DNA of 64,000 nucleotides from assembly GCA_028687715.1 (NCBI GenBank), contig JAQTZP010000003.1, positions 7,521 through 71,520 of the forward strand, in the 5' to 3' direction. The notes under the pieces are model-generated. The model did not search any database. It worked only from the letters and a program-made list of their open reading frames with translations, and was not told the origin of the DNA. Both the position numbers and the translations under genes were made by a program. Below, piece by piece: positions 7,156 through 35,809 of the stretch. The stretch's first letter is position 1, and every line of letters begins with the position of its first letter. The stretch is from Minisyncoccota bacterium. GTDB taxonomy: Bacteria; Patescibacteriota; Minisyncoccia; Minisyncoccales; GWA2-38-27.

Positions 7156-7866
7156 TTAAAGCCCTATAAACTCCCTTATTATATTGATAGGGACAGCTGA
7201 AATCTTTCCTAAAGAATCAACATTGGCAATTCCAACAAGCTCTCCCTTTATATTAAAAACAGGGCTTCCTTTGACATTTGTCTTATCTGTCATATTTGTC
7301 TGGATTATTTTATCATTGTAATTTTTAATAATCCCTTCGTTTACTGATTTATTCAGTCCTTTTTCAAAAAAAGATGATACCAGAAATATCCTTTTTCCAT
7401 ACCTTAAACTGCCGAAATCAGCAAAAGCCACTGTTTTAAGATTTTCTTCGTTTATCTTTATCAAAGCCAGGTTTTTATCCAAATCCCTTTTTAAAATCTG
7501 ATACTCAAGAACTTTTGAATCTACATAAAAAGCAAAAGCGCCTGAAGCAGGAACTAATTCTGCCAGAGTTAAAACCAAGCCGTCAGAGGTAACAATAATC
7601 CCTGAACCTGATATATTTTTGCCTGATACAGCTGTCCCTATCCCGATTACAGATTTTTCAACATCTTCAACAATATCCTCCAACAAAGTATTTTCTTCAA
7701 TAAATACTTCATATTTTTCAGTGACATAGACCGGAGACTGCTCTAAGCGGTACTTATAGAAAAGAGGCCTTTCAATAAAATAAGGCCAGAGAATCTGGTC
7801 AGCGAAAATCCCGCCGATTGTCCCTATTGTAAAGATGATAATAATTTTAAATATATTCTTTAGCAT
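7156..7866 (-). CDS. membrane-anchored trypsin-like (S1C-like) protein, probably lacking the catalytic His
   Basis: 236 aa with an N-terminal TM helix. GSGIIVTSDGLVLTLAELV has no His where the two HtrA paralogues have TNKHVV and TSCHVV. A Ser-box remnant VKGSPVFN is present. Confidence 0.5.
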   Translation of the reverse strand: MLKNIFKIIIIFTIGTIGGIFADQILWPYFIERPLFYKYRLEQSPVYVTEKYEVFIEENTLLEDIVEDVEKSVIGIGTAVSGKNISGSGIIVTSDGLVLTLAELVPASGAFAFYVDSKVLEYQILKRDLDKNLALIKINEENLKTVAFADFGSLRYGKRIFLVSSFFEKGLNKSVNEGIIKNYNDKIIQTNMTDKTNVKGSPVFNIKGELVGIANVDSLGKISAVPINIIREFIGL

Positions 7867-28923: not shown

Positions 28924-29460
28924 TTATAGCTTTGTAAATCCCTTCTGAAAGACCTTAAGCCATTCATCAAACTCACTTCTAACATCTTTGCTTATTTGGT
29001 TAGAAATTTGTTTTAAGTCTTGATTAAATCCAAAATTCCCTTTAATCTGATCGACTATTTCAATAGCAATATTAAATAAAGATTTAACTTCATTGATACT
29101 CATCGAATTTTCTCTTAAAAATTCTTCTCGAGCAAGCATTCTCTTTACATCGAGATGTGCAAACATCTTATTCCTTAAATTTGTAATCCTTTCAATCAGT
29201 TCATCGTAATCTGATAATTTATAATCTAGGAAATAATAAATGGAAATGGTTTCTTTAAACCTTTTAGGAACTTCAAAAATTTTTGCTAAACCTAACAAAT
29301 AATCTTTTTCCAAACTTATAAGAATTATATTCCATGTTGGAATAAATTTATTGTAAAAATCTCCATCCACTTTCTCGTGCATAATTTCATTAAGACATAA
29401 CTGACGATAAGAAAATAATAGATTTTCAATTAATATCTCAAATTCTTCAGCTTGCGCCAT
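28924..29460 (-). CDS. HEPN-like (AbiU2-type) putative defence protein
   Basis: 178-aa all-helical protein with an Rx4-6H-type motif LRNKMFAHLD. It is the last gene of the methyltransferase-endonuclease operon. Confidence 0.5.
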   Translation of the reverse strand: MAQAEEFEILIENLLFSYRQLCLNEIMHEKVDGDFYNKFIPTWNIILISLEKDYLLGLAKIFEVPKRFKETISIYYFLDYKLSDYDELIERITNLRNKMFAHLDVKRMLAREEFLRENSMSINEVKSLFNIAIEIVDQIKGNFGFNQDLKQISNQISKDVRSEFDEWLKVFQKGFTKL

Positions 29461-29474
29461 AGGAATTAAAATAC

Positions 29475-30389
29475 TTATTTAAGCATAAACAAAGCCTTAA
29501 AACCGGCGGTATTTACCCAAAAATTCTGCGGATTGTGAATTAGATATTTCTTAATCTCTTTTCTTTGCGTTGTTATTTTATCACCACCATTTTCATCGCT
29601 TAGAAGAATATTTGAGTAACTGCCGTCCAAAAAAGCGAGATAAGAGATATTTTTATTCTGTTCTCTTAGGCTAATAATTTCAATCAATTCGGCAATTTGC
29701 TTATCTTGTCCCCCGCCCGAAGTATTTAGATGTTTAGCTTCGCATAAAAATATTCTTCCATTCATTTTAATAATCAAGTCTAACTTTTTATTCTGTTTCT
29801 TGGCGGCCAATCTAATACCTAAATTTTTTCGGACATTTTTTACGCTGAAAATCTTTGAAAATTTAGCTGTGCATTTTCGTTTATCAGAAAAATCTTTCCA
29901 AGTCCTTACTTCTTGAAAACCATATTTGGCTAAAATATACAGAAGTTTTTTCTCGCCGCATTTTCCTTTTTTGCGACCAGAATTTGAATCTAAAATAGCT
30001 TGTATCCATTCTTCGGGAACGGATTCATTCAAAATTCTTTTCTCAAAATATTTTTGGGCGATTTTCTCTAGTAAAATAATGTCCTGCTTGGCTAAATCTA
30101 AAAAGCTATCGCAGGCGTTTATAAAACAAGCAAATTCCGAACAATTTGAGAATTTCCCCAGCGCCTTTGAAAGCTCCAAGAGATATTTTCTTATAACTTT
30201 TTTGTCCTCGTTTTTCTTTTGTAATGTCCTAATGGTAATCAGGATATTTTTAATTTCTTTTGTATTGGTAATATACTTCTGAAGTTGCGGGTGTTTTCCA
30301 TCAAAAATATAAAAACTATCCAAAATTTTCTCTGGATTTTGCTGTGATATTTTAAAATAATGCAGGTTGTTTTGAATTTTTTTCATCAT
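29475..30389 (-). CDS. putative type II restriction endonuclease (PD-(D/E)xK-like)
   Basis: 304 aa. KKLDLIIKMNGRIFLCEAKH fits D...ExK. It overlaps the upstream methyltransferase gene by 38 nt. Confidence 0.5.
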   Translation of the reverse strand: MMKKIQNNLHYFKISQQNPEKILDSFYIFDGKHPQLQKYITNTKEIKNILITIRTLQKKNEDKKVIRKYLLELSKALGKFSNCSEFACFINACDSFLDLAKQDIILLEKIAQKYFEKRILNESVPEEWIQAILDSNSGRKKGKCGEKKLLYILAKYGFQEVRTWKDFSDKRKCTAKFSKIFSVKNVRKNLGIRLAAKKQNKKLDLIIKMNGRIFLCEAKHLNTSGGGQDKQIAELIEIISLREQNKNISYLAFLDGSYSNILLSDENGGDKITTQRKEIKKYLIHNPQNFWVNTAGFKALFMLK

Positions 30390-31488
30390 AAATATAGTTC
30401 AAAAACTTATAAGTAAGCTCAAAAGAAATTCTTTTCCTGTTGTTGTCTCTAAAATTAGTCAGAAAAAATGAAAGATATTTACTCCTCCCGCGATTCAACT
30501 CTTTGTTAAACCGCTTCATCAGTTCTATTTGGTCGTTTATCGGTATTTCCTCCTTGAAAATCAAATGGGCCATATTACGGGAAGTGTTTTTGCCCACAAG
30601 CCCGACAACGCCATACTTTCTTATATCTTCAAGTTGAATTTTCTTTCCGTTTTTGCTGTCTATGGCCCTTAAAAAGAGGATGTTTTTTTCTATTAACTTT
30701 TTAATGTCTTTGCTGATACGAAGCGGTTTTTTATCTTTAATATTCTGAAACGCCAACTCAACTTCGTATTCACCGGATTTCAAATAATCTTCAGTTAAGC
30801 GAAAAATTCCTAAATGATTTTGGGTATTTTTAATTCTGTTGATAAAATCACCGCCAAATTGCCAGTTGTATTTTCTTTCAATCGTAAAATCAATCTGTTT
30901 CTTTTCGGGGAAAATAACGGCGGGAATTCTGATCTTTTCTAAATTATCTTTTTTTCTTCTGAAATAAAAAGATATTACGTTATAAGTTGTGTCTTCAAAA
31001 ACTTGTTCGGAAAAGATGTTTAACTTTACAATTTCAAATTTATCAAAGAATAGATTTCTGATTTTTCTGGAATTTTCAGCGCAAAGAAAATTCAATGGAA
31101 CAATTAAAATTCCTTCTTCGCAATTCAAAATTGAGAATACAGAAACTTGATATAAATCCTCAAAACCTGAATGCGTTCCGGAAAAAAACCTTTCTTTAGT
31201 TTTTTGGTCCGTCTTGTTTTTGTGTAAATAGGGCGGATTAGTACAAACGAACTTATATATCTGCGGAGAATTTATTGAATCATTATAGAGGGTATTTTTG
31301 CCGTCAACATAGTTTTTATCACAATCAAAACCAACGACTTTTTTGCAGCCATTTTTGCGAGCCCACCCTATTAAATCCTGATTGCCGGCAAAAGGATCGG
31401 TAATTTCTTTATTTTTTACAAATCCCTCAAGTCCCTGCAGAATATAATCAGAATTTGTAGTGAAAAATTGTCCAAATTGCTTTTTCAT
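30352..31488 (-). CDS. N6-adenine DNA methyltransferase (type II, gamma-like motif order)
   Basis: 378 aa. FGQFFTT, a SAM-binding-like DPFAGNQD and the catalytic TNPPY are present. Confidence 0.8.
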   Translation of the reverse strand: MKKQFGQFFTTNSDYILQGLEGFVKNKEITDPFAGNQDLIGWARKNGCKKVVGFDCDKNYVDGKNTLYNDSINSPQIYKFVCTNPPYLHKNKTDQKTKERFFSGTHSGFEDLYQVSVFSILNCEEGILIVPLNFLCAENSRKIRNLFFDKFEIVKLNIFSEQVFEDTTYNVISFYFRRKKDNLEKIRIPAVIFPEKKQIDFTIERKYNWQFGGDFINRIKNTQNHLGIFRLTEDYLKSGEYEVELAFQNIKDKKPLRISKDIKKLIEKNILFLRAIDSKNGKKIQLEDIRKYGVVGLVGKNTSRNMAHLIFKEEIPINDQIELMKRFNKELNRGRSKYLSFFLTNFRDNNRKRISFELTYKFLNYIYDEKNSKQPALF

Positions 31489-31648: not shown

Positions 31649-32191
31649 TTAGAAACTCTTAAACAGGGATGTCAATTTCTTCCTTTTAGATATCATATAC
31701 CCTCCCCACCCTATAATTATTCCAATTACTGCTCCGTAAAAAACATCAGAGGGCCAATGAATGCCTATAAAGATTCTGGATGTGGTTATTAAAAAAGCAG
31801 AGATATAGAATAAAAGGCCGAGTTTTTTGTTATACAGATAGACAGCTGTTGATAAAGCGAAATAAAAAGAGGCATGGCCTGAAGGAAAAGAAGCCTCATT
31901 AGAATTATAATTTACAAGCAGATTAACATTGTTAGTTATAAAAGGCCTGGGTCTGAACCAAATAAAACGAATAAAGTCAGTTACGATAAATCTTGATATC
32001 AAAGCAGACAAAAACCCAGAAGCAGCCATTCTGCAATATTCTTTAAACTTTAAAGCCAATAGCCCAAATAAAACCAAGATTAAAACATACTCAAAATATT
32101 GAGCTAAAAATACGGCAAAAGCATCTAAACAGGCCCATTTCCCCGCATAACCATTTATTAAATTAAATAGATATAGATCCATATTCTTCAA
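31649..32191 (-). CDS. PAP2 family phosphatase (undecaprenyl-diphosphatase-like)
   Basis: 180-aa polytopic protein with PSGHAS and SRIFIGIHWPSDV motifs. Its start overlaps the RT stop. Confidence 0.85.
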   Translation of the reverse strand: MKNMDLYLFNLINGYAGKWACLDAFAVFLAQYFEYVLILVLFGLLALKFKEYCRMAASGFLSALISRFIVTDFIRFIWFRPRPFITNNVNLLVNYNSNEASFPSGHASFYFALSTAVYLYNKKLGLLFYISAFLITTSRIFIGIHWPSDVFYGAVIGIIIGWGGYMISKRKKLTSLFKSF

Positions 32192-33218
32192 TTATTTCCT
32201 TTTTTAATTTATAACTCTTGCAATGTTTTAAAATGCCGAAATAAGATTGAATAGTTTGACCAAAAGATTGTTTTGAGATTTTATTGTTTTTTAGGTCTTT
32301 AATTCTCTTTTCTATTCTTTTTAACATTCTTTTTTTAGTCTTAGTCCTTAAGATAATATGATGAGGGAAACTGACATATCCCAAGAAATCAACTCCCTGG
32401 TGATATCTCTTTATTACTATCTTACCTGGATGAAGAGATAATTTCAAATTACCTTTTAGAAAAGTTTTAATCTTTGGAATAATCCCTGTCAGATATCTGA
32501 AATTATTAGACACTATCAAGAAATCATCGCAATAACGAACATAATATCTTATTCTTAGATTATCTTTGATAAATCTATCTAACTCATTCAGATAAATATT
32601 AGCAAATAATTGGCTTGTAATATTTCCCAAAGGAATACCTTTTAAAAGCGAGGTTGAATAGCTTTTAATTATTCCTTCTATCAACCAAACAGCATCTTTA
32701 TCTTTTATCTTTTTTTTAATTAAACTAATTAGTATTTTATGGTCTATTGAATCAAAGAACTTTAAAATATCGCATTTTAGAAAATAGCAATTTCTAGCAT
32801 TATTCTTACTTGCCTTTTTAGCGAACCTATTAAGACGCACTACTGCCCTATGAGTACCTTTGTTTATCCTTGAAGAATAGGAATCAAAGATAAAAGAATT
32901 ATCAAAAATAGGGTATAATATTTTAAAAACAGCATGATGTAAGACCCTGTCTTTTACGCAAGCTTTATGAATATGCCTGAGTTTCGGGTCTTTTATATAG
33001 AAAGAGGTATAATCAGAATGTCTGTAGGTTTTTAATTTTAATTCTTTATGAAGACAAAATATATTATTTTCTAAAAAGAGGTTAAAATCTAAAACATCTA
33101 TTTTTTTAATTTTCCCCCTTTTAAATTCATCCCAAGCGCAAAATAGATTTTCAAGAGAAATAATCTCATCAAAAGTATGGCATTTAATACCCCCGACTTC
33201 GATTTGCCGATTATCCAT
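32163..33218 (-). CDS. DGR-type reverse transcriptase
   Basis: 351 aa. The N-terminal ...LENLFCAWDEFKRGK... matches DGR/group-II-like RTs. The DGR signature LGNITSQ and the catalytic YCDD (RYCDDFLIV) are present. Confidence 0.9.
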   Translation of the reverse strand: MDNRQIEVGGIKCHTFDEIISLENLFCAWDEFKRGKIKKIDVLDFNLFLENNIFCLHKELKLKTYRHSDYTSFYIKDPKLRHIHKACVKDRVLHHAVFKILYPIFDNSFIFDSYSSRINKGTHRAVVRLNRFAKKASKNNARNCYFLKCDILKFFDSIDHKILISLIKKKIKDKDAVWLIEGIIKSYSTSLLKGIPLGNITSQLFANIYLNELDRFIKDNLRIRYYVRYCDDFLIVSNNFRYLTGIIPKIKTFLKGNLKLSLHPGKIVIKRYHQGVDFLGYVSFPHHIILRTKTKKRMLKRIEKRIKDLKNNKISKQSFGQTIQSYFGILKHCKSYKLKKEIIEEYGSISI

Positions 33219-33539
33219 AAAGTTTATGATTTTTACAACCTATTTTATCGGTATTTAGAAACTTTTCCCAAAAAAGATAAATATATCTTAGGACAAAAAT
33301 GCGAGAATATAATTTTAGATATCTTAGAACTGATTTTTACAGCAGCTCAAACCAAGCAAGAAAATAAATTAGATTTATTAGAAAAAGCAAGCGTTAAGTT
33401 AAATATCTTAAGAATAATAGTGAGATTAGCAAAAGATATAAAGGTTTTAGACTTTAAGAAGTATCTAACAATCCAAAAGAATATAGATGAAATTGGGAGA
33501 ATGCTTGGCGGCTGGATTAAATTAACCAAAGACCGCTGA
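33177..33539 (+). CDS. avd: Avd-like four-helix-bundle accessory protein (opposite strand to RT/TR/target)
   Basis: 120-aa basic helical protein. ...KDKYILGQKCENIILDILELI... and the C-terminal IGRMLGGWIKLTK resemble bAvd/four-helix-bundle proteins. Confidence 0.7.
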   Translation: MAFNTPDFDLPIIHKVYDFYNLFYRYLETFPKKDKYILGQKCENIILDILELIFTAAQTKQENKLDLLEKASVKLNILRIIVRLAKDIKVLDFKKYLTIQKNIDEIGRMLGGWIKLTKDR

Positions 33540-33587
33540 ACTAAAGGTTCTCCAAAAAAGAGGGTGTTTTTATTTTAGATGAGAGAT

Positions 33588-33709
33588 AGAATTTCCGAGC
33601 AGAGGAAACACCCAAGTTAGCGTTGCGGTTGTCATCCCAGTTGTTGTTGACGTTGAGGCCCCTCAAATCGAAGTTGCCGACGTAGATACGGTTGCCGTCC
33701 GAATCCACA
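33588..33709 (-). repeat. DGR template repeat (TR)
   Basis: The 122 nt are identical to VR except at 17 of its 29 adenines on the minus strand. It encodes GNRIYVGNFDLRGLNVNNNWDDNRNANLGVSSARK with nine AAC codons. Confidence 0.9.
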
Positions 33710-33995
33710 TTATTTGCTTATCCTCGTCCATGTCACTGGAAATTGGGGTTTACTACTCATAAGAGTTTATATCCTCTCTTTCCTGTATTTTATTCGGGAG
33801 CAGACAAATTTCGTTGCCATCTCCTCTAAAGACAAGCAAGAAGTTCTATCTCTATCTTTTATCACACGCTATCGTTATCCGTAAACAACGATATTCTGGT
33901 GATGTCTCAAAGATGAGACGCCTGCGAGGTGAAGCCTTGACCGCACCTGCATTAGCAGACATTTATATTTTATAAGATATTTGAAGAAAAGAAAA

Positions 33996-34026
33996 GAGCC
34001 TCCTGCGAAAATATCGCCGAAGGCTC
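33996..34026 (-). terminator. terminator-like hairpin after the DGR target gene
   Basis: GAGCCT...AGGCTC stem followed by TTTTCTTTTCTTC on the minus strand. Confidence 0.45.
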
Positions 34027-34029
34027 AAG

Positions 34030-34056
34030 GACTCAAGAGATTCAAACTCTCGAGTC
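34030..34056 (-). promoter_or_regulatory. inverted repeat/hairpin immediately 3' of VR
   Basis: 10-bp stem (GACTCGAGAG / TCTCTTGAGTC, one G-U pair on the minus-strand RNA) with a 7-nt loop, starting 8 nt after the target stop codon. Confidence 0.45.
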
Positions 34057-34063
34057 TCAAAGT

Positions 34064-34837
34064 TCAGAACTTCCGAGCAGAGGAAACACCCAAGTCAGCG
34101 CTGCGGTAGTCATCCCAGTCGTAGCAGACGTAGAGGCCCCTCAAATCGAAGGCGCCGACGAAGAGACGGCGGCCGACCGAAGCCACAGATGAGGTTCGAA
34201 CATAGATGTGTTCAAACAAGCGTTCATCAGTAGCAAGATAGTGTCCAATGATGGTGTAGACCATCACTTGGGCAGTGGGGACTTCATCCTCTTCGCCGAT
34301 AAGAGCCAATTGCTCTTCCCAGTTCTTCGAGGTTGAATTGTTCACTGGGGTCTTGGAAACCAAGTGCCAGCTTGTCTTGCCACGGTCACGAGCGACTGAC
34401 TCCTCGTTGTACCACGACTGGTCGCAGAACAACCTGGAATCCACCTTGCCCCGAATCTCAAGGATTGAGAGCGGGAAGACTGCCACCAGAACGTGCGTGT
34501 CCTTTGCCTTTTGGAGCACCTCTTCAGAGAAAGGAATCTCCGACAAAGCAAGCGTTTGCTGGCGGGTCGGGTTAACCCCGAAATGCTTGATGGCTTCTTC
34601 AATGCCGAAGAAGTTCCTGCCCATGATTTCACGGGCACGCTTCTGGCTGGTTGTGGGTTCGAACCCGCCTTTCTGAATCAACCTGACCACTTTCGTAGCA
34701 AGGTCGTTGCCCTTCGAGTCGATGACTTTCTGGGCGAACTCTCCTGTGAGACCAGCGACTTCCAACTTCTTCAGGAATTCGTGTTCCTGATGCACCGAAA
34801 TGGTACGTTCGTCTGTAGAGCTTACCATGGCTTTCAT
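34064..34837 (-). CDS. DGR target protein (variable C-terminus), no signal peptide, unknown N-terminal domain
   Basis: 257-aa ORF, G+C-rich, with SD AGGAGGG upstream. The last 40 codons are the VR. Confidence 0.85.
   Translation of the reverse strand: MKAMVSSTDERTISVHQEHEFLKKLEVAGLTGEFAQKVIDSKGNDLATKVVRLIQKGGFEPTTSQKRAREIMGRNFFGIEEAIKHFGVNPTRQQTLALSEIPFSEEVLQKAKDTHVLVAVFPLSILEIRGKVDSRLFCDQSWYNEESVARDRGKTSWHLVSKTPVNNSTSKNWEEQLALIGEEDEVPTAQVMVYTIIGHYLATDERLFEHIYVRTSSVASVGRRLFVGAFDLRGLYVCYDWDDYRSADLGVSSARKF
34066..34187 (-). repeat. DGR variable repeat (VR)
   Basis: 3' end of the target ORF, offset exactly 478 nt from TR. All 17 mismatches to TR are at TR adenines. Confidence 0.9.
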
Positions 34838-34978
34838 GGCACACCCTCCTGTCTGTGAAGTTATCCGATTCGTCGGATATGCGACTGCCTCGGAATGAGA
34901 CTAGCGCTTTACACCCTTTTTAAAGTTAAAGGAGGTAAAACGCTAGCCTCATATTTCTGAAACATTTGATATAAAGAA

Positions 34979-35809
34979 CTATTCTGCCTTAATTATAGCA
35001 AATTTAAATAAATTGTCAAGTAGGCAAGCTACAGCCACAGGCCCAATTCCATTTGGCACCGGAGCTATAAAACTTGCCTTATGGTAGGCATTTTTATCAA
35101 TATCCCCTTTTACCCTTCCTTCTTCAGAAGATGTTCCTGCGTCAATTAAAACAACGCCTTCTTTTACCATCTTATCAGTTATAATCCCGGGCGAACCGGC
35201 CCCTGATATTATAATGTCAGCTTCTTTTGTAATCTCTGATATATTTTTTGTGCTTCTATCAATTACAGAATAATTAATATTTCTGTTTTTAAACCATACG
35301 GCCAGGGGTTTTCCAACCAGCCTCCCTTTCCCGACTATCACCACTTTTTTATTATTAATATCAATGTTAAATTCTTCTAAAAAGCATTTCACTGCGCCGA
35401 CAACAGGAGGAAGAATCATCAGCTTGTTCCTTTCAAACTTATCAAAATTAATGTCTGTTAAAACATCAATATCTTTTTCAGGCGGTATCATATTTAAAAT
35501 ATCAGGCGCATTGAAGCCTTTAGGCAGAGGAAGCTGAATAACAATTGATGAAACGCTTGCGTCTTCGGCTAATCTCTTTACTTCTTTCTTTAAATCGTCT
35601 TCAGAAACATCTAAAGGGAAAAAAGAGAGATTAAACTCAATTCCTATTTTCCTAGAAGCCTCCTCTTTCTTCCTTATAAACGACTTAGAAGCCAAGCTTT
35701 CTCCAGCCAAAACAACAGCTAACTTCAAATTAAGCTTTTTTTCAATAATCTTTTTCTTAAGATTATCTAAAATCCTATCAGCTAGTTTATTGCCGTCTAA
35801 AATAGTCAT
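34979..35809 (-). CDS. folD: bifunctional methylenetetrahydrofolate dehydrogenase/cyclohydrolase
   Basis: 276 aa. Rossmann site VVIVGKGRLVGKPLA and a FolD-like C-terminus PNGIGPVAVACLL. Confidence 0.9.
   Translation of the reverse strand: MTILDGNKLADRILDNLKKKIIEKKLNLKLAVVLAGESLASKSFIRKKEEASRKIGIEFNLSFFPLDVSEDDLKKEVKRLAEDASVSSIVIQLPLPKGFNAPDILNMIPPEKDIDVLTDINFDKFERNKLMILPPVVGAVKCFLEEFNIDINNKKVVIVGKGRLVGKPLAVWFKNRNINYSVIDRSTKNISEITKEADIIISGAGSPGIITDKMVKEGVVLIDAGTSSEEGRVKGDIDKNAYHKASFIAPVPNGIGPVAVACLLDNLFKFAIIKAE
34992..35019 (-). promoter_or_regulatory. consensus sigma70 promoter TTGACA-N16-TATAAT inside the 3' end of folD, facing the DGR target
   Basis: The minus strand reads TTGACAatttatttaaatttgcTATAAT. 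The predicted 5' UTR is about 150 nt and contains hairpins at 34901-34946 and 34863-34878. Confidence 0.5.

Follow-up and report, generated by a model that had tools for sequence, protein, structure and literature searches.

A complete CPR diversity-generating retroelement of Architecture B3, with an apparently selected dual-coding overlap of its reverse transcriptase and avd genes and a putative structured leader upstream of the template repeat

The 64,000-nt stretch of a Minisyncoccota bacterium analysed here (contig JAQTZP010000003.1 of assembly GCA_028687715.1, forward-strand positions 7,521 to 71,520; hereafter the window, in whose own numbering all coordinates are given) carries a diversity-generating retroelement (DGR) in which a target gene ending in a variable repeat (VR), a template repeat (TR) and the gene for a reverse transcriptase (RT) lie on the minus strand, and the accessory gene avd lies on the plus strand between TR and RT (Table 1). 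The element is an ordinary member of the class found in the candidate phyla radiation (CPR), and its interest lies in the mechanism that the class as a whole seems to suggest. In this element and in a large group of relatives (the loci L001 onward, taken from genomes and metagenomes), the RT and avd genes share their first codons in an overlap that appears to be kept open on both strands by selection, and comparative analysis points to a conserved, covarying RNA of about 250 nt directly upstream of the TR, not opposite avd.

The TR and VR align by BLAST over 122 nt at 86% identity, where 17 of 17 mismatches fall at TR adenines and nearly all at codon position 1 or 2 of the target. Since these differences are adenine-specific and all four components are present and intact, the locus is a complete chromosomal DGR that has been active at some point; no second VR was found in the window. 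On the minus strand the order is the open reading frame (ORF) of the target with its C-terminal VR, which ends at the stop codon, followed by a 356-nt non-coding gap, the TR and the RT. The RT matches Pfam RVT_1 (E=1.2e-22); the solved structure closest to it is that of bRT from Bordetella phage (bRT-Avd-RNA particle, PDB 8ub7; E=3.4e-43 over query residues 15-313), which ranks above group II intron and retron RTs. Among the NCBIfam models no DGR-RT-specific one matched it, the top match being that for group II intron RTs at 149 bits, below the cut-off of 300. The plus-strand product passes the curated thresholds of NF033474 DivGenRetAVD (101.9 bits, cut-off 80) and PF22296 bAvd (83.7 bits, cut-off 40), while a sequence-only PDB search with it gave zero matches. 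The Avd-like nature of this ORF, together with the parts, ORFs and strands described above, had been proposed in an earlier note made from the sequence alone, and all of these assignments hold.

That note had also considered the layout unusual, which is not borne out by a published DGR catalogue. As presented in the main text of that work, Architecture B3 is the arrangement TR-(avd)-RT, in which avd is read from the reverse strand, and it accounts for 90% of a set of 126 CPR DGRs while being nearly absent elsewhere (Wu et al., 2018; NAR 46:11, PMC5758913). The window has avd between TR and RT on the opposite strand and no other accessory gene, and it resembles Architecture B3 in how TR, avd and RT are ordered and oriented, in its single adjacent upstream target and in its CPR host, with no layout difference from the architecture as described there. 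The closest 27 RT relatives among GTDB species genomes all come from Patescibacteria metagenome-assembled genomes (MAGs); in 24 of the 27 loci Avd is divergent from and directly adjacent to the RT, and 22 of those 24 show the order VR-gap-TR-(avd)-RT with TR/VR pairs that are A-biased. A metagenome scan found the TR-(avd)-RT arrangement in 68 of 68 loci with a detected Avd. In more distant RT relatives, which belong to other phyla, avd is found either upstream and on the same strand, or else downstream of the RT. The layout is the standard CPR DGR cassette and the norm of this RT clade, already described and frequent. The RT family itself has at least 7884 members at E<=1e-60, and the RT of the window is 100% identical to a protein (P0014) that is named by NCBI as coming from a Candidatus Pacebacteria MAG.

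Within this cassette the RT and avd genes are divergent and share 42 nt, exactly 14 RT codons lying in phase and antisense to 14 Avd codons, as had first been noted. The overlap is bounded by reciprocal ATG/CAT triplets, so that M1 of the RT is antisense to H14 of Avd and M1 of Avd is antisense to H14 of the RT. The further observation that no alternative ATG would remove the overlap was upheld as well: the RT has no ATG, GTG or TTG other than the ATG at 33218 between the upstream stop and its conserved core, and the alternative Avd start, a TTG at 33204, would still leave an overlap of 15 nt. Neither the RT nor the avd start is preceded by a Shine-Dalgarno (SD) sequence, again in agreement with the earlier observation; the target gene, by contrast, has AGGAGG.

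Among the relatives, the conserved cores of RT and Avd lie 22-99 nt apart in 24 genome loci and up to 135 nt apart in one metagenome locus, and the junction between them takes two forms. In sub-type 1, which comprises about 40 loci without a repeat, the ATGs stand back to back, most commonly 3-4 nt apart, and in nearly all of them the spacing falls between a gap of 27 nt and an overlap of 27 nt. In sub-type 2, about 45 loci including the window, the ATGs lie on the far sides of a central repeat and the ORFs overlap by about 40-90 nt; many of these loci are like the window, with the RT ATG about 24-27 nt and the Avd ATG about 12-13 nt from the repeat.

Whether such an overlap is under selection can be read from the codons TTA, CTA and TCA, each of which has a stop as its in-phase antisense, and their use was compared across 44 related loci of sub-type 2. 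On the Avd side these codons make up 1 of 396 in the overlap versus 330 of 4738 (7.0%) in the rest of Avd (p=1e-11), and on the RT side 2 of 220 in the overlap versus 770 of 14593 (5.3%) elsewhere (p=6e-4), p-values that are optimistic, as the relatives are not phylogenetically independent. Leucine is encoded by TTA or CTA in 0 of 40 cases in the overlap versus 262 of 694 elsewhere. Because antisense-stop codons are depleted in the overlapped segments, the overlap appears to be selected, with both N-terminal extensions kept open, and not to be accidental or an artefact of chance ORFs. It could be argued that the overlap is only apparent, with Avd initiating at TTG 33204 and the RT at an ATT or ATC codon, so that the two genes would abut and the open antisense frames would result from composition. 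The conserved cores do begin at RT residue 15-16 and Avd residue 10, with 30 nt between them, residue 8 of bRT aligns with RT residue 15, and the back-to-back ATGs of the repeat-less relatives would fit such an arrangement. Nevertheless, we give this explanation very little credence, given the lack of any other start codon upstream of the RT core, the depletion of antisense stops in exactly the overlapped codons and the position of the ATGs, which lie beyond the tract in 41 of 44 repeat-bearing loci.

The overlap bears on automated annotation. Public gene calls omit avd in the window (locus L076) and in L178-L186, and shorten it to 76 aa in L158-L167, presumably because the caller disallows 5'-5' overlaps. 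Among 120 called RT homologues, about 25 start right at the G run described below (MGGG... or LGGG...).

At the centre of the overlap in the window is a run of only five G on the RT strand (C5 on the plus strand), with both genes in frame, and at the same site many relatives have a much longer repeat. In a census of 87 non-redundant loci, the RT strand carries G8-G15 in 39 loci and G5-G7 in six, which include the window and its closest relative L001 (both G5), and (GA)10-11 or (CT)6 takes the place of the run in three; the remainder are without a repeat. Runs of at least eight G or C number 37 in 5.4 kb of junction sequence versus three in 434 kb of flanking sequence, an enrichment of about 1000-fold; at the lower threshold of at least 5, the window has 34 such runs. 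The run lies within both ORFs, so that the two reading frames are fixed together by its length, and only about six of the 39 long tracts are in frame as assembled. Six sets of otherwise identical contigs were available for a comparison of tract length. These were retrieved by way of RTs whose called start lies past the tract, as exact look-ups with RTs that read through it cannot, by construction, show length variation. Tract length differs in three of the six sets and is invariant in the other three. In the first (L190/L191, an NCBI MAG and a Logan assembly) G10 versus G11 is the sole difference in 2396 nt, in the second (L199/L200, two JGI samples) G11 versus G10 is the sole difference in 2372 nt, and in the third (L201/L202) G12 is found versus G11. 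In L197/L198 the tract is interrupted (GGGGGTGGGG) and looks like a stabilised homopolymer derivative; the window and L001, with their G5 runs, give the same impression.

These differences are the signature expected of a slipped-strand contingency repeat, short of excluding homopolymer error. The competing explanation is that the run is no switch at all, and merely encodes Gly-Gly-Gly on one strand and Pro-Pro-Pro on the other, with the frameshifts and length differences coming from short-read homopolymer errors. Length differences in the range of G10-G12 can indeed arise from sequencing or assembly error, L201 has a run of Ns beside the tract and a coverage of only 3.6x, the three invariant sets of identical contigs each agree on one length, as do L081 and L082, and many called RT homologues have GGG near the N-terminus. 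On the other hand, the run is pure G for 8-15 nt in AT-rich genomes and does not consist of mixed GGN codons, its lengths are often not multiples of three, dinucleotide repeats replace it at the same site in three loci, out-of-frame lengths recur in independent assemblies, and two pairs from different sources differ solely in the run. On balance, an inert run combined with sequencing error seems to us unlikely, though it keeps real weight. The window itself lacks the run of about seven to eight or more G or C that would mark a phase-variable locus; its 5-nt run is too short to be hypermutable, and both genes are simply in frame.

The second class-level feature lies on the other side of the TR. 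The gap between VR and TR follows one plan in 23 of 23 loci, in which CTTG-type repeats with an inverted repeat and a target terminator are followed by a TATAAT-like box, then, 6-10 nt further on, by a 5' motif and about 190-360 nt of conserved sequence up to the TR; in 22 relatives the box is often TG-extended. In the distal part of this leader, RNAalifold on a MAFFT alignment of 10 loci that was not fitted to structure predicts 26 pairs, 23 of them with compensatory change, and 88.5% of the alignment cells are paired versus 62.9% after shuffling (0/500 shuffles) and 38-49% with slid partners. The proximal part, with helix P1, an A-rich box, a 9-bp helix P2 closed by UGCG or GNRA loops and then CAGUG..GGA, has 15 predicted pairs, 12 with double changes, in an alignment that was fitted to the model. 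A covariance model (R1) built from seven relatives, with the window left out, gave 12 matches in 499 kb, each directly upstream of a TR, including one non-seed locus at 78.8 bits; in the window it matches 33707-33855 (27.1 bits, E=5e-4). With a second model, weak matches (10-19 bits) were obtained at the same position in nine more distant loci of the clade. Rfam 15 has no family at the leader, at gathering threshold or at E<=10. A small ORF in the VR-TR gap was considered and rejected, as the similarity between loci extends over several frames and both strands, which argues that the leader is conserved as nucleotides and not as an ORF. Similarly, a promoter-like match at 33736..33709 was discarded as the TR promoter, since it overlaps the conserved CAGUG..GGA box and a better-conserved -10 box lies about 250 nt upstream.

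This leader has a predicted partner in the TR. A conserved ACU box, situated 100-147 nt upstream of the TR, is complementary to the 3' boundary of the TR, and in the window the two arms (AGAGAUAGAACUUCU and GGAAAUUCUAUCUCU) can form a duplex of 15 nt in which a single position is mismatched (0/200 shuffles, z=5.5). The arms vary by sub-group and yet stay complementary, for example GAGCACUCC:GGAGUGCUC and UAGAAACU:AGUUUCUA, and cognate leader/TR pairs outscore non-cognate ones across 23 loci (Mann-Whitney p=9e-9). These values come from a restricted ungapped-helix test, which replaced a long-range RNAduplex comparison of the whole leader with the TR 3' end that was noisy and scored cognate and non-cognate pairs about equally. 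A duplex between the TR 3' end and its flanking RNA is also predicted here, with the partner on the 5' side rather than the 3' side, and the leader may be the functional counterpart of the Bordetella spacer.

In the Bordetella element, RNA flanking the TR pairs with the TR 3' end to prime cDNA synthesis, a tetraloop-capped stem of about 9 bp binds Avd, and in BPP-1 a 140-nt spacer downstream of the TR is essential (bioRxiv 10.1101/2023.10.23.563531). By analogy, the TR of the window could be co-transcribed with the RT, with a priming spacer downstream that is antisense to avd and a long RNA that down-regulates avd by antisense pairing. The window has no stable hairpin on either strand of the 48-nt spacer between the TR and the avd stop (z +0.3 and +0.7) and no terminator there, and no convincing separate RT promoter was found, all of which would suit such a model. 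It remains improbable in our view, because a strong hairpin (-14 to -33 kcal/mol) is found within about 25 nt after the TR in 21 of 22 relatives (z -4.8 and -3.7 in L001 and L016), because the region downstream of the TR in the window folds no better than shuffled sequence, and because the covarying RNA is situated upstream of the TR, as is the sequence predicted to pair with its 3' end. Where TR and avd are not overlapping in the relatives, 11-73 nt lie between the TR end and the avd stop. The hairpin often spans the avd stop and is flanked by A- and U-runs, a U-run following it in about half of the loci, so that it looks like a bidirectional terminator. The earlier note had held that any RNA continuing from TR to RT would be antisense to avd and that the priming spacer would be encoded opposite avd. 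In the window, where the spacer has no stable hairpin, such read-through is possible and would make the antisense scenario partly true; the second part is probably moot, with the hairpin of the relatives directly after the TR and the conserved RNA upstream of it.

Taken together, the locus could run as three transcription units. The target gene, equipped with a strong promoter, an SD and a terminator of its own, would be the first. The second would be a leader-TR RNA that starts at the -10 box just after the target terminator; its leader, and not a 3' spacer, would recruit RT-Avd, the duplex between the ACU box and the TR 3' end would place the start site of cDNA synthesis, and in most relatives the RNA would end at a bidirectional terminator common to the convergent avd gene. 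The third would consist of avd and RT, each transcribed from a promoter buried in the first codons of its partner, which would give SD-less mRNAs that overlap at their 5' ends and presumably a low, coupled expression. The frame of both genes would, in many relatives, be set at once by a hypermutable G:C tract (or GA/CT repeat) in the middle of the overlap, whereas in the window, with a tract of only 5 nt and both genes in frame, the element would be constitutively "on".

As a whole, an intact CPR-class DGR of Architecture B3 with a selected 14-by-14 overlap, a leader-TR RNA and these three units is the account that we consider probable. More is demanded by the joint proposal that the inverted avd of this large clade belongs to a re-engineered control architecture, that the role of the 3' spacer in recruiting RT-Avd and positioning initiation has passed to a 5' leader of about 250 nt, which would clamp the 3' end of the TR, that the TR terminates convergently with avd, and that the overlap tract is a slipped-strand switch which makes hypermutation phase-variable, with the window as a "locked-on" member carrying a shortened G5; this combination is advanced tentatively, at somewhat less than an even chance. 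Besides the optimistic p-values, the 3.6x coverage of L201 and the invariant contig sets mentioned above, several points weigh against these proposals. A conserved N-terminal peptide of the RT (M-N-Q-R-N-I-K-F) and the equal frame shift of both genes were examined as evidence for translation and set aside, the former being merely the antisense of the Avd motif F-(D/N)-L-P-I-(I/L)-H and the latter following from the in-phase geometry, and neither counts as independent evidence. P2 of the window is closed by no more than 4 bp and contains an insertion of 44 nt, the R1 score is modest, and the box:TR duplex exceeds z=2 in only 13 of 23 loci. No promoter could be assigned with confidence to RT or avd, -10 scans inside both genes being unconvincing; a recurrent AATAAT located 45-60 nt upstream of the Avd core was not decisive as a -10 element, for it coincides with conserved RT codons (EIIS). 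The rules of CPR promoters are poorly known, and we infer the promoters, RNA ends and priming site alike.

The comparison with BPP-1 (mtd-avd-TR-brt, Architecture B1) shows what is shared and what is rearranged. The two elements have homologous RTs, an Avd of the same family, adenine-specific TR-to-VR transfer, a VR at the C-terminus of the target, RNA outside the TR that pairs, or is predicted to pair, with the 3' end of the TR, and hairpins of about 9 bp that are capped by tetraloops. They differ in that avd in the window is on the other strand between TR and RT, in that the 5' ends of RT and avd overlap, and in that a 3' spacer of 140 nt would not fit, the structured RNA being a permuted 5' leader of about 250 nt. 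Immediately downstream of the TR, no structured RNA of the Bordetella type was found within the 48 nt of the window, or in the 11-73 nt of the relatives beyond their single hairpin.

For the tract, the nearest likeness is to simple sequence repeat (SSR) contingency loci. In Haemophilus influenzae, a (TA)n repeat lies between the divergent hifA/hifB fimbrial promoters, and the relatives, too, have one repeat serving two divergent genes. SSR contingency loci also include poly-G tracts in Neisseria and Campylobacter genes (PMC5084427; PMC8355987), to which the relatives, though not the window, compare in their G8-G15 or dinucleotide repeat at a coding 5' end, in the dependence of frame on length and in length differences between otherwise identical sequences. 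Unlike those loci, the repeat is located inside a dual-coding overlap and would act on the frame of both genes, not on promoter spacing, and what it would control is a mutagenic retroelement and not a surface antigen. No papers linking DGRs to homopolymeric tracts or phase variation were found in the literature searched, and the main text of Wu et al. (2018) makes no mention of a start-to-start overlap, a G:C tract or an upstream leader RNA; in Rfam 15 and that literature, the dual-coding overlap, the tract and the 5' leader all appear to be undescribed.

The layout as first noted is that of a textbook CPR DGR and is nothing new by itself. The codon evidence argues that, in a large sub-clade, the overlap is a dual-coding feature which is genuine and under selection, and the tract and the leader are suggested by comparative sequence analysis. 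A very large proportion of all DGRs is found in CPR and DPANN organisms. To our knowledge, the mechanism of DGRs has been studied only in the Bordetella phage element, which differs in the organisation of its RNA. The leader, with its testable box:TR pairing, is a concrete RNA construct for the reconstitution of a CPR DGR and would be useful for DGR-based mutagenesis tools. If the tract does gate RT and Avd, it would amount to phase variation of diversification itself, for which no description was found. Moreover, as gene callers miss or shorten avd and cut RTs at the tract, catalogues may under-report Avd and mis-assign starts.

Table 1. Features of the DGR locus and its neighbour, in window coordinates
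Feature	Position	Strand	Remarks
PAP2 / undecaprenyl-diphosphatase-like gene	31649..32191	-	neighbour, outside the DGR
DGR reverse transcriptase, 351 aa	32163..33218	-	Pfam RVT_1; LGNITSQ and YCDD motifs
Dual-coding head-to-head overlap	33177..33218	both	42 nt; 14 RT versus 14 Avd codons, in-phase antisense
C5 (plus) / G5 (RT strand) run	33190..33194	both	centre of overlap; in frame for both genes
avd, 120 aa	33177..33539	+	opposite TR and RT; NCBIfam and Pfam Avd models
Convergent spacer, TR end to avd stop, 48 nt	33540..33587	both	no stable hairpin here
TR 3'-boundary arm GGAAAUUCUAUCUCU	33582..33596	-	predicted to pair with ACU box
Template repeat (TR)	~33588..33709	-	repeat pair with VR
Putative structured 5' leader of TR RNA, ~250 nt	33710..33960	-	covariation and covariance model
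Leader parts in order: 5' motif GUCUGCUAAUG, two distal helices, ACU box, P1, AAUAAAAUACAG box, P2, CAGUG..GGA		-	
Leader CAGUG..GGA	33727-33739	-	
Leader AAUAAAAUACAG box	33783-33794	-	
Leader ACU box arm AGAGAUAGAACUUCU	33839..33853	-	complementary to TR 3' boundary
-10-like AT box TATAAAATATAAAT, proposed (inferred) TR-RNA promoter	33961..33974	-	conserved box in relatives
Terminator-like stem-loop (33996-34026) with T-run (33984-33995)	33984..34026	-	would end target transcript; same layout in VR-TR gaps of relatives
Inverted repeat GAGACUCGAGAG-UUUGAAU-CUCUUGAGUC	34030..34058	-	directly after VR and stop codon; surrounded by short CTTG-type repeats
DGR target gene, 257 aa	34064..34837	-	VR at 3' end; AGGAGG SD
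Variable repeat (VR)	34065..34187	-	3' end of target ORF; 86% identical to TR

The target protein has zero Pfam or NCBIfam matches. Its SD is located 7 nt 5' of the ATG, and upstream is a GC-rich 5' untranslated region of about 150 nt (34838-34985), preceded by a sigma-70-type promoter (TTGACA-16-TGnTATAAT, a perfect 12/12; 34992-35019, minus strand) inside the 3' end of a folD-like gene. From these sequence features the target gene looks strongly expressed, unlike the SD-less RT and avd. It also differs from them in composition, with a GC content of 53% in the target and 52% in the TR versus 29% in avd and 27% in the RT, the surrounding genome being at about 33%. Recent horizontal transfer of a target/TR module, which the jump from 27% to 53% might suggest, was rejected, for the target ORF is GC-richer than RT/avd in 23 of 23 loci examined, by 7 to 26 points, and the contrast is thus systematic and not due to a local transfer event. 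Clear relatives of the target protein are confined to L010, a Kerfeldbacteria MAG with two paralogous targets in tandem (48% and 42% identity), and L002, with one (32%); as L001 is the closest locus by RT, target relatedness is incongruent with the RT ranking.

Just 3' of the VR (34030-34063), CTT(G/A) motifs recur at a spacing of about 8-11 nt, and in L001-L027 their density in the first ~80 nt after the VR is 2-5 per 100 nt versus about 0.8 elsewhere. The inverted repeat found here occupies the same position as the hairpin that follows the initiation of mutagenic homing (IMH) site in Bordetella and Legionella DGRs, as presented in the main text of Wu et al. (2018), and together with the CTT(G/A) motifs it may be a target-site recognition element comparable to that post-IMH hairpin.

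Downstream of the DGR, the RT stop overlaps the start of the PAP2 ORF, as the earlier note had stated, by 29 nt if this ORF starts at TTG 32191 or by 20 nt from ATG 32182, the start used in the public gene call; this same-strand overlap of 20-29 nt is real and ordinary for a compact genome. No synteny with the relatives was found for the flanking PAP2, folD, glyA and methyltransferase genes. Directly 3' of PAP2 (28924-31488, minus strand) are three ORFs with weak Pfam matches to an Eco57I-type methyltransferase/restriction enzyme, DpnII and HEPN_AbiU2, which form a small defence island beside the DGR.

Two observations concern other RT relatives. In the DPANN archaeal loci L030, L031, L033, L034, L037 and L039, mostly no Avd was detected in the fetched flanks, with the exception of a distant Avd match about 2 kb downstream of the RT in L034. 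Their TRs are 82-93 nt long and end about 10-60 nt before the RT start, except in L031, where the TR is just downstream of the RT on the other strand; several of these loci have multiple VRs, and they also leave no room for a Bordetella-like 3' spacer. Finally, the close RT homologues P0053 (512 aa) and P0063 (483 aa), at 56-57% identity, have an additional PF03167 domain (uracil-DNA glycosylase superfamily), and are DGR-type RTs fused to a uracil-DNA glycosylase-like domain.

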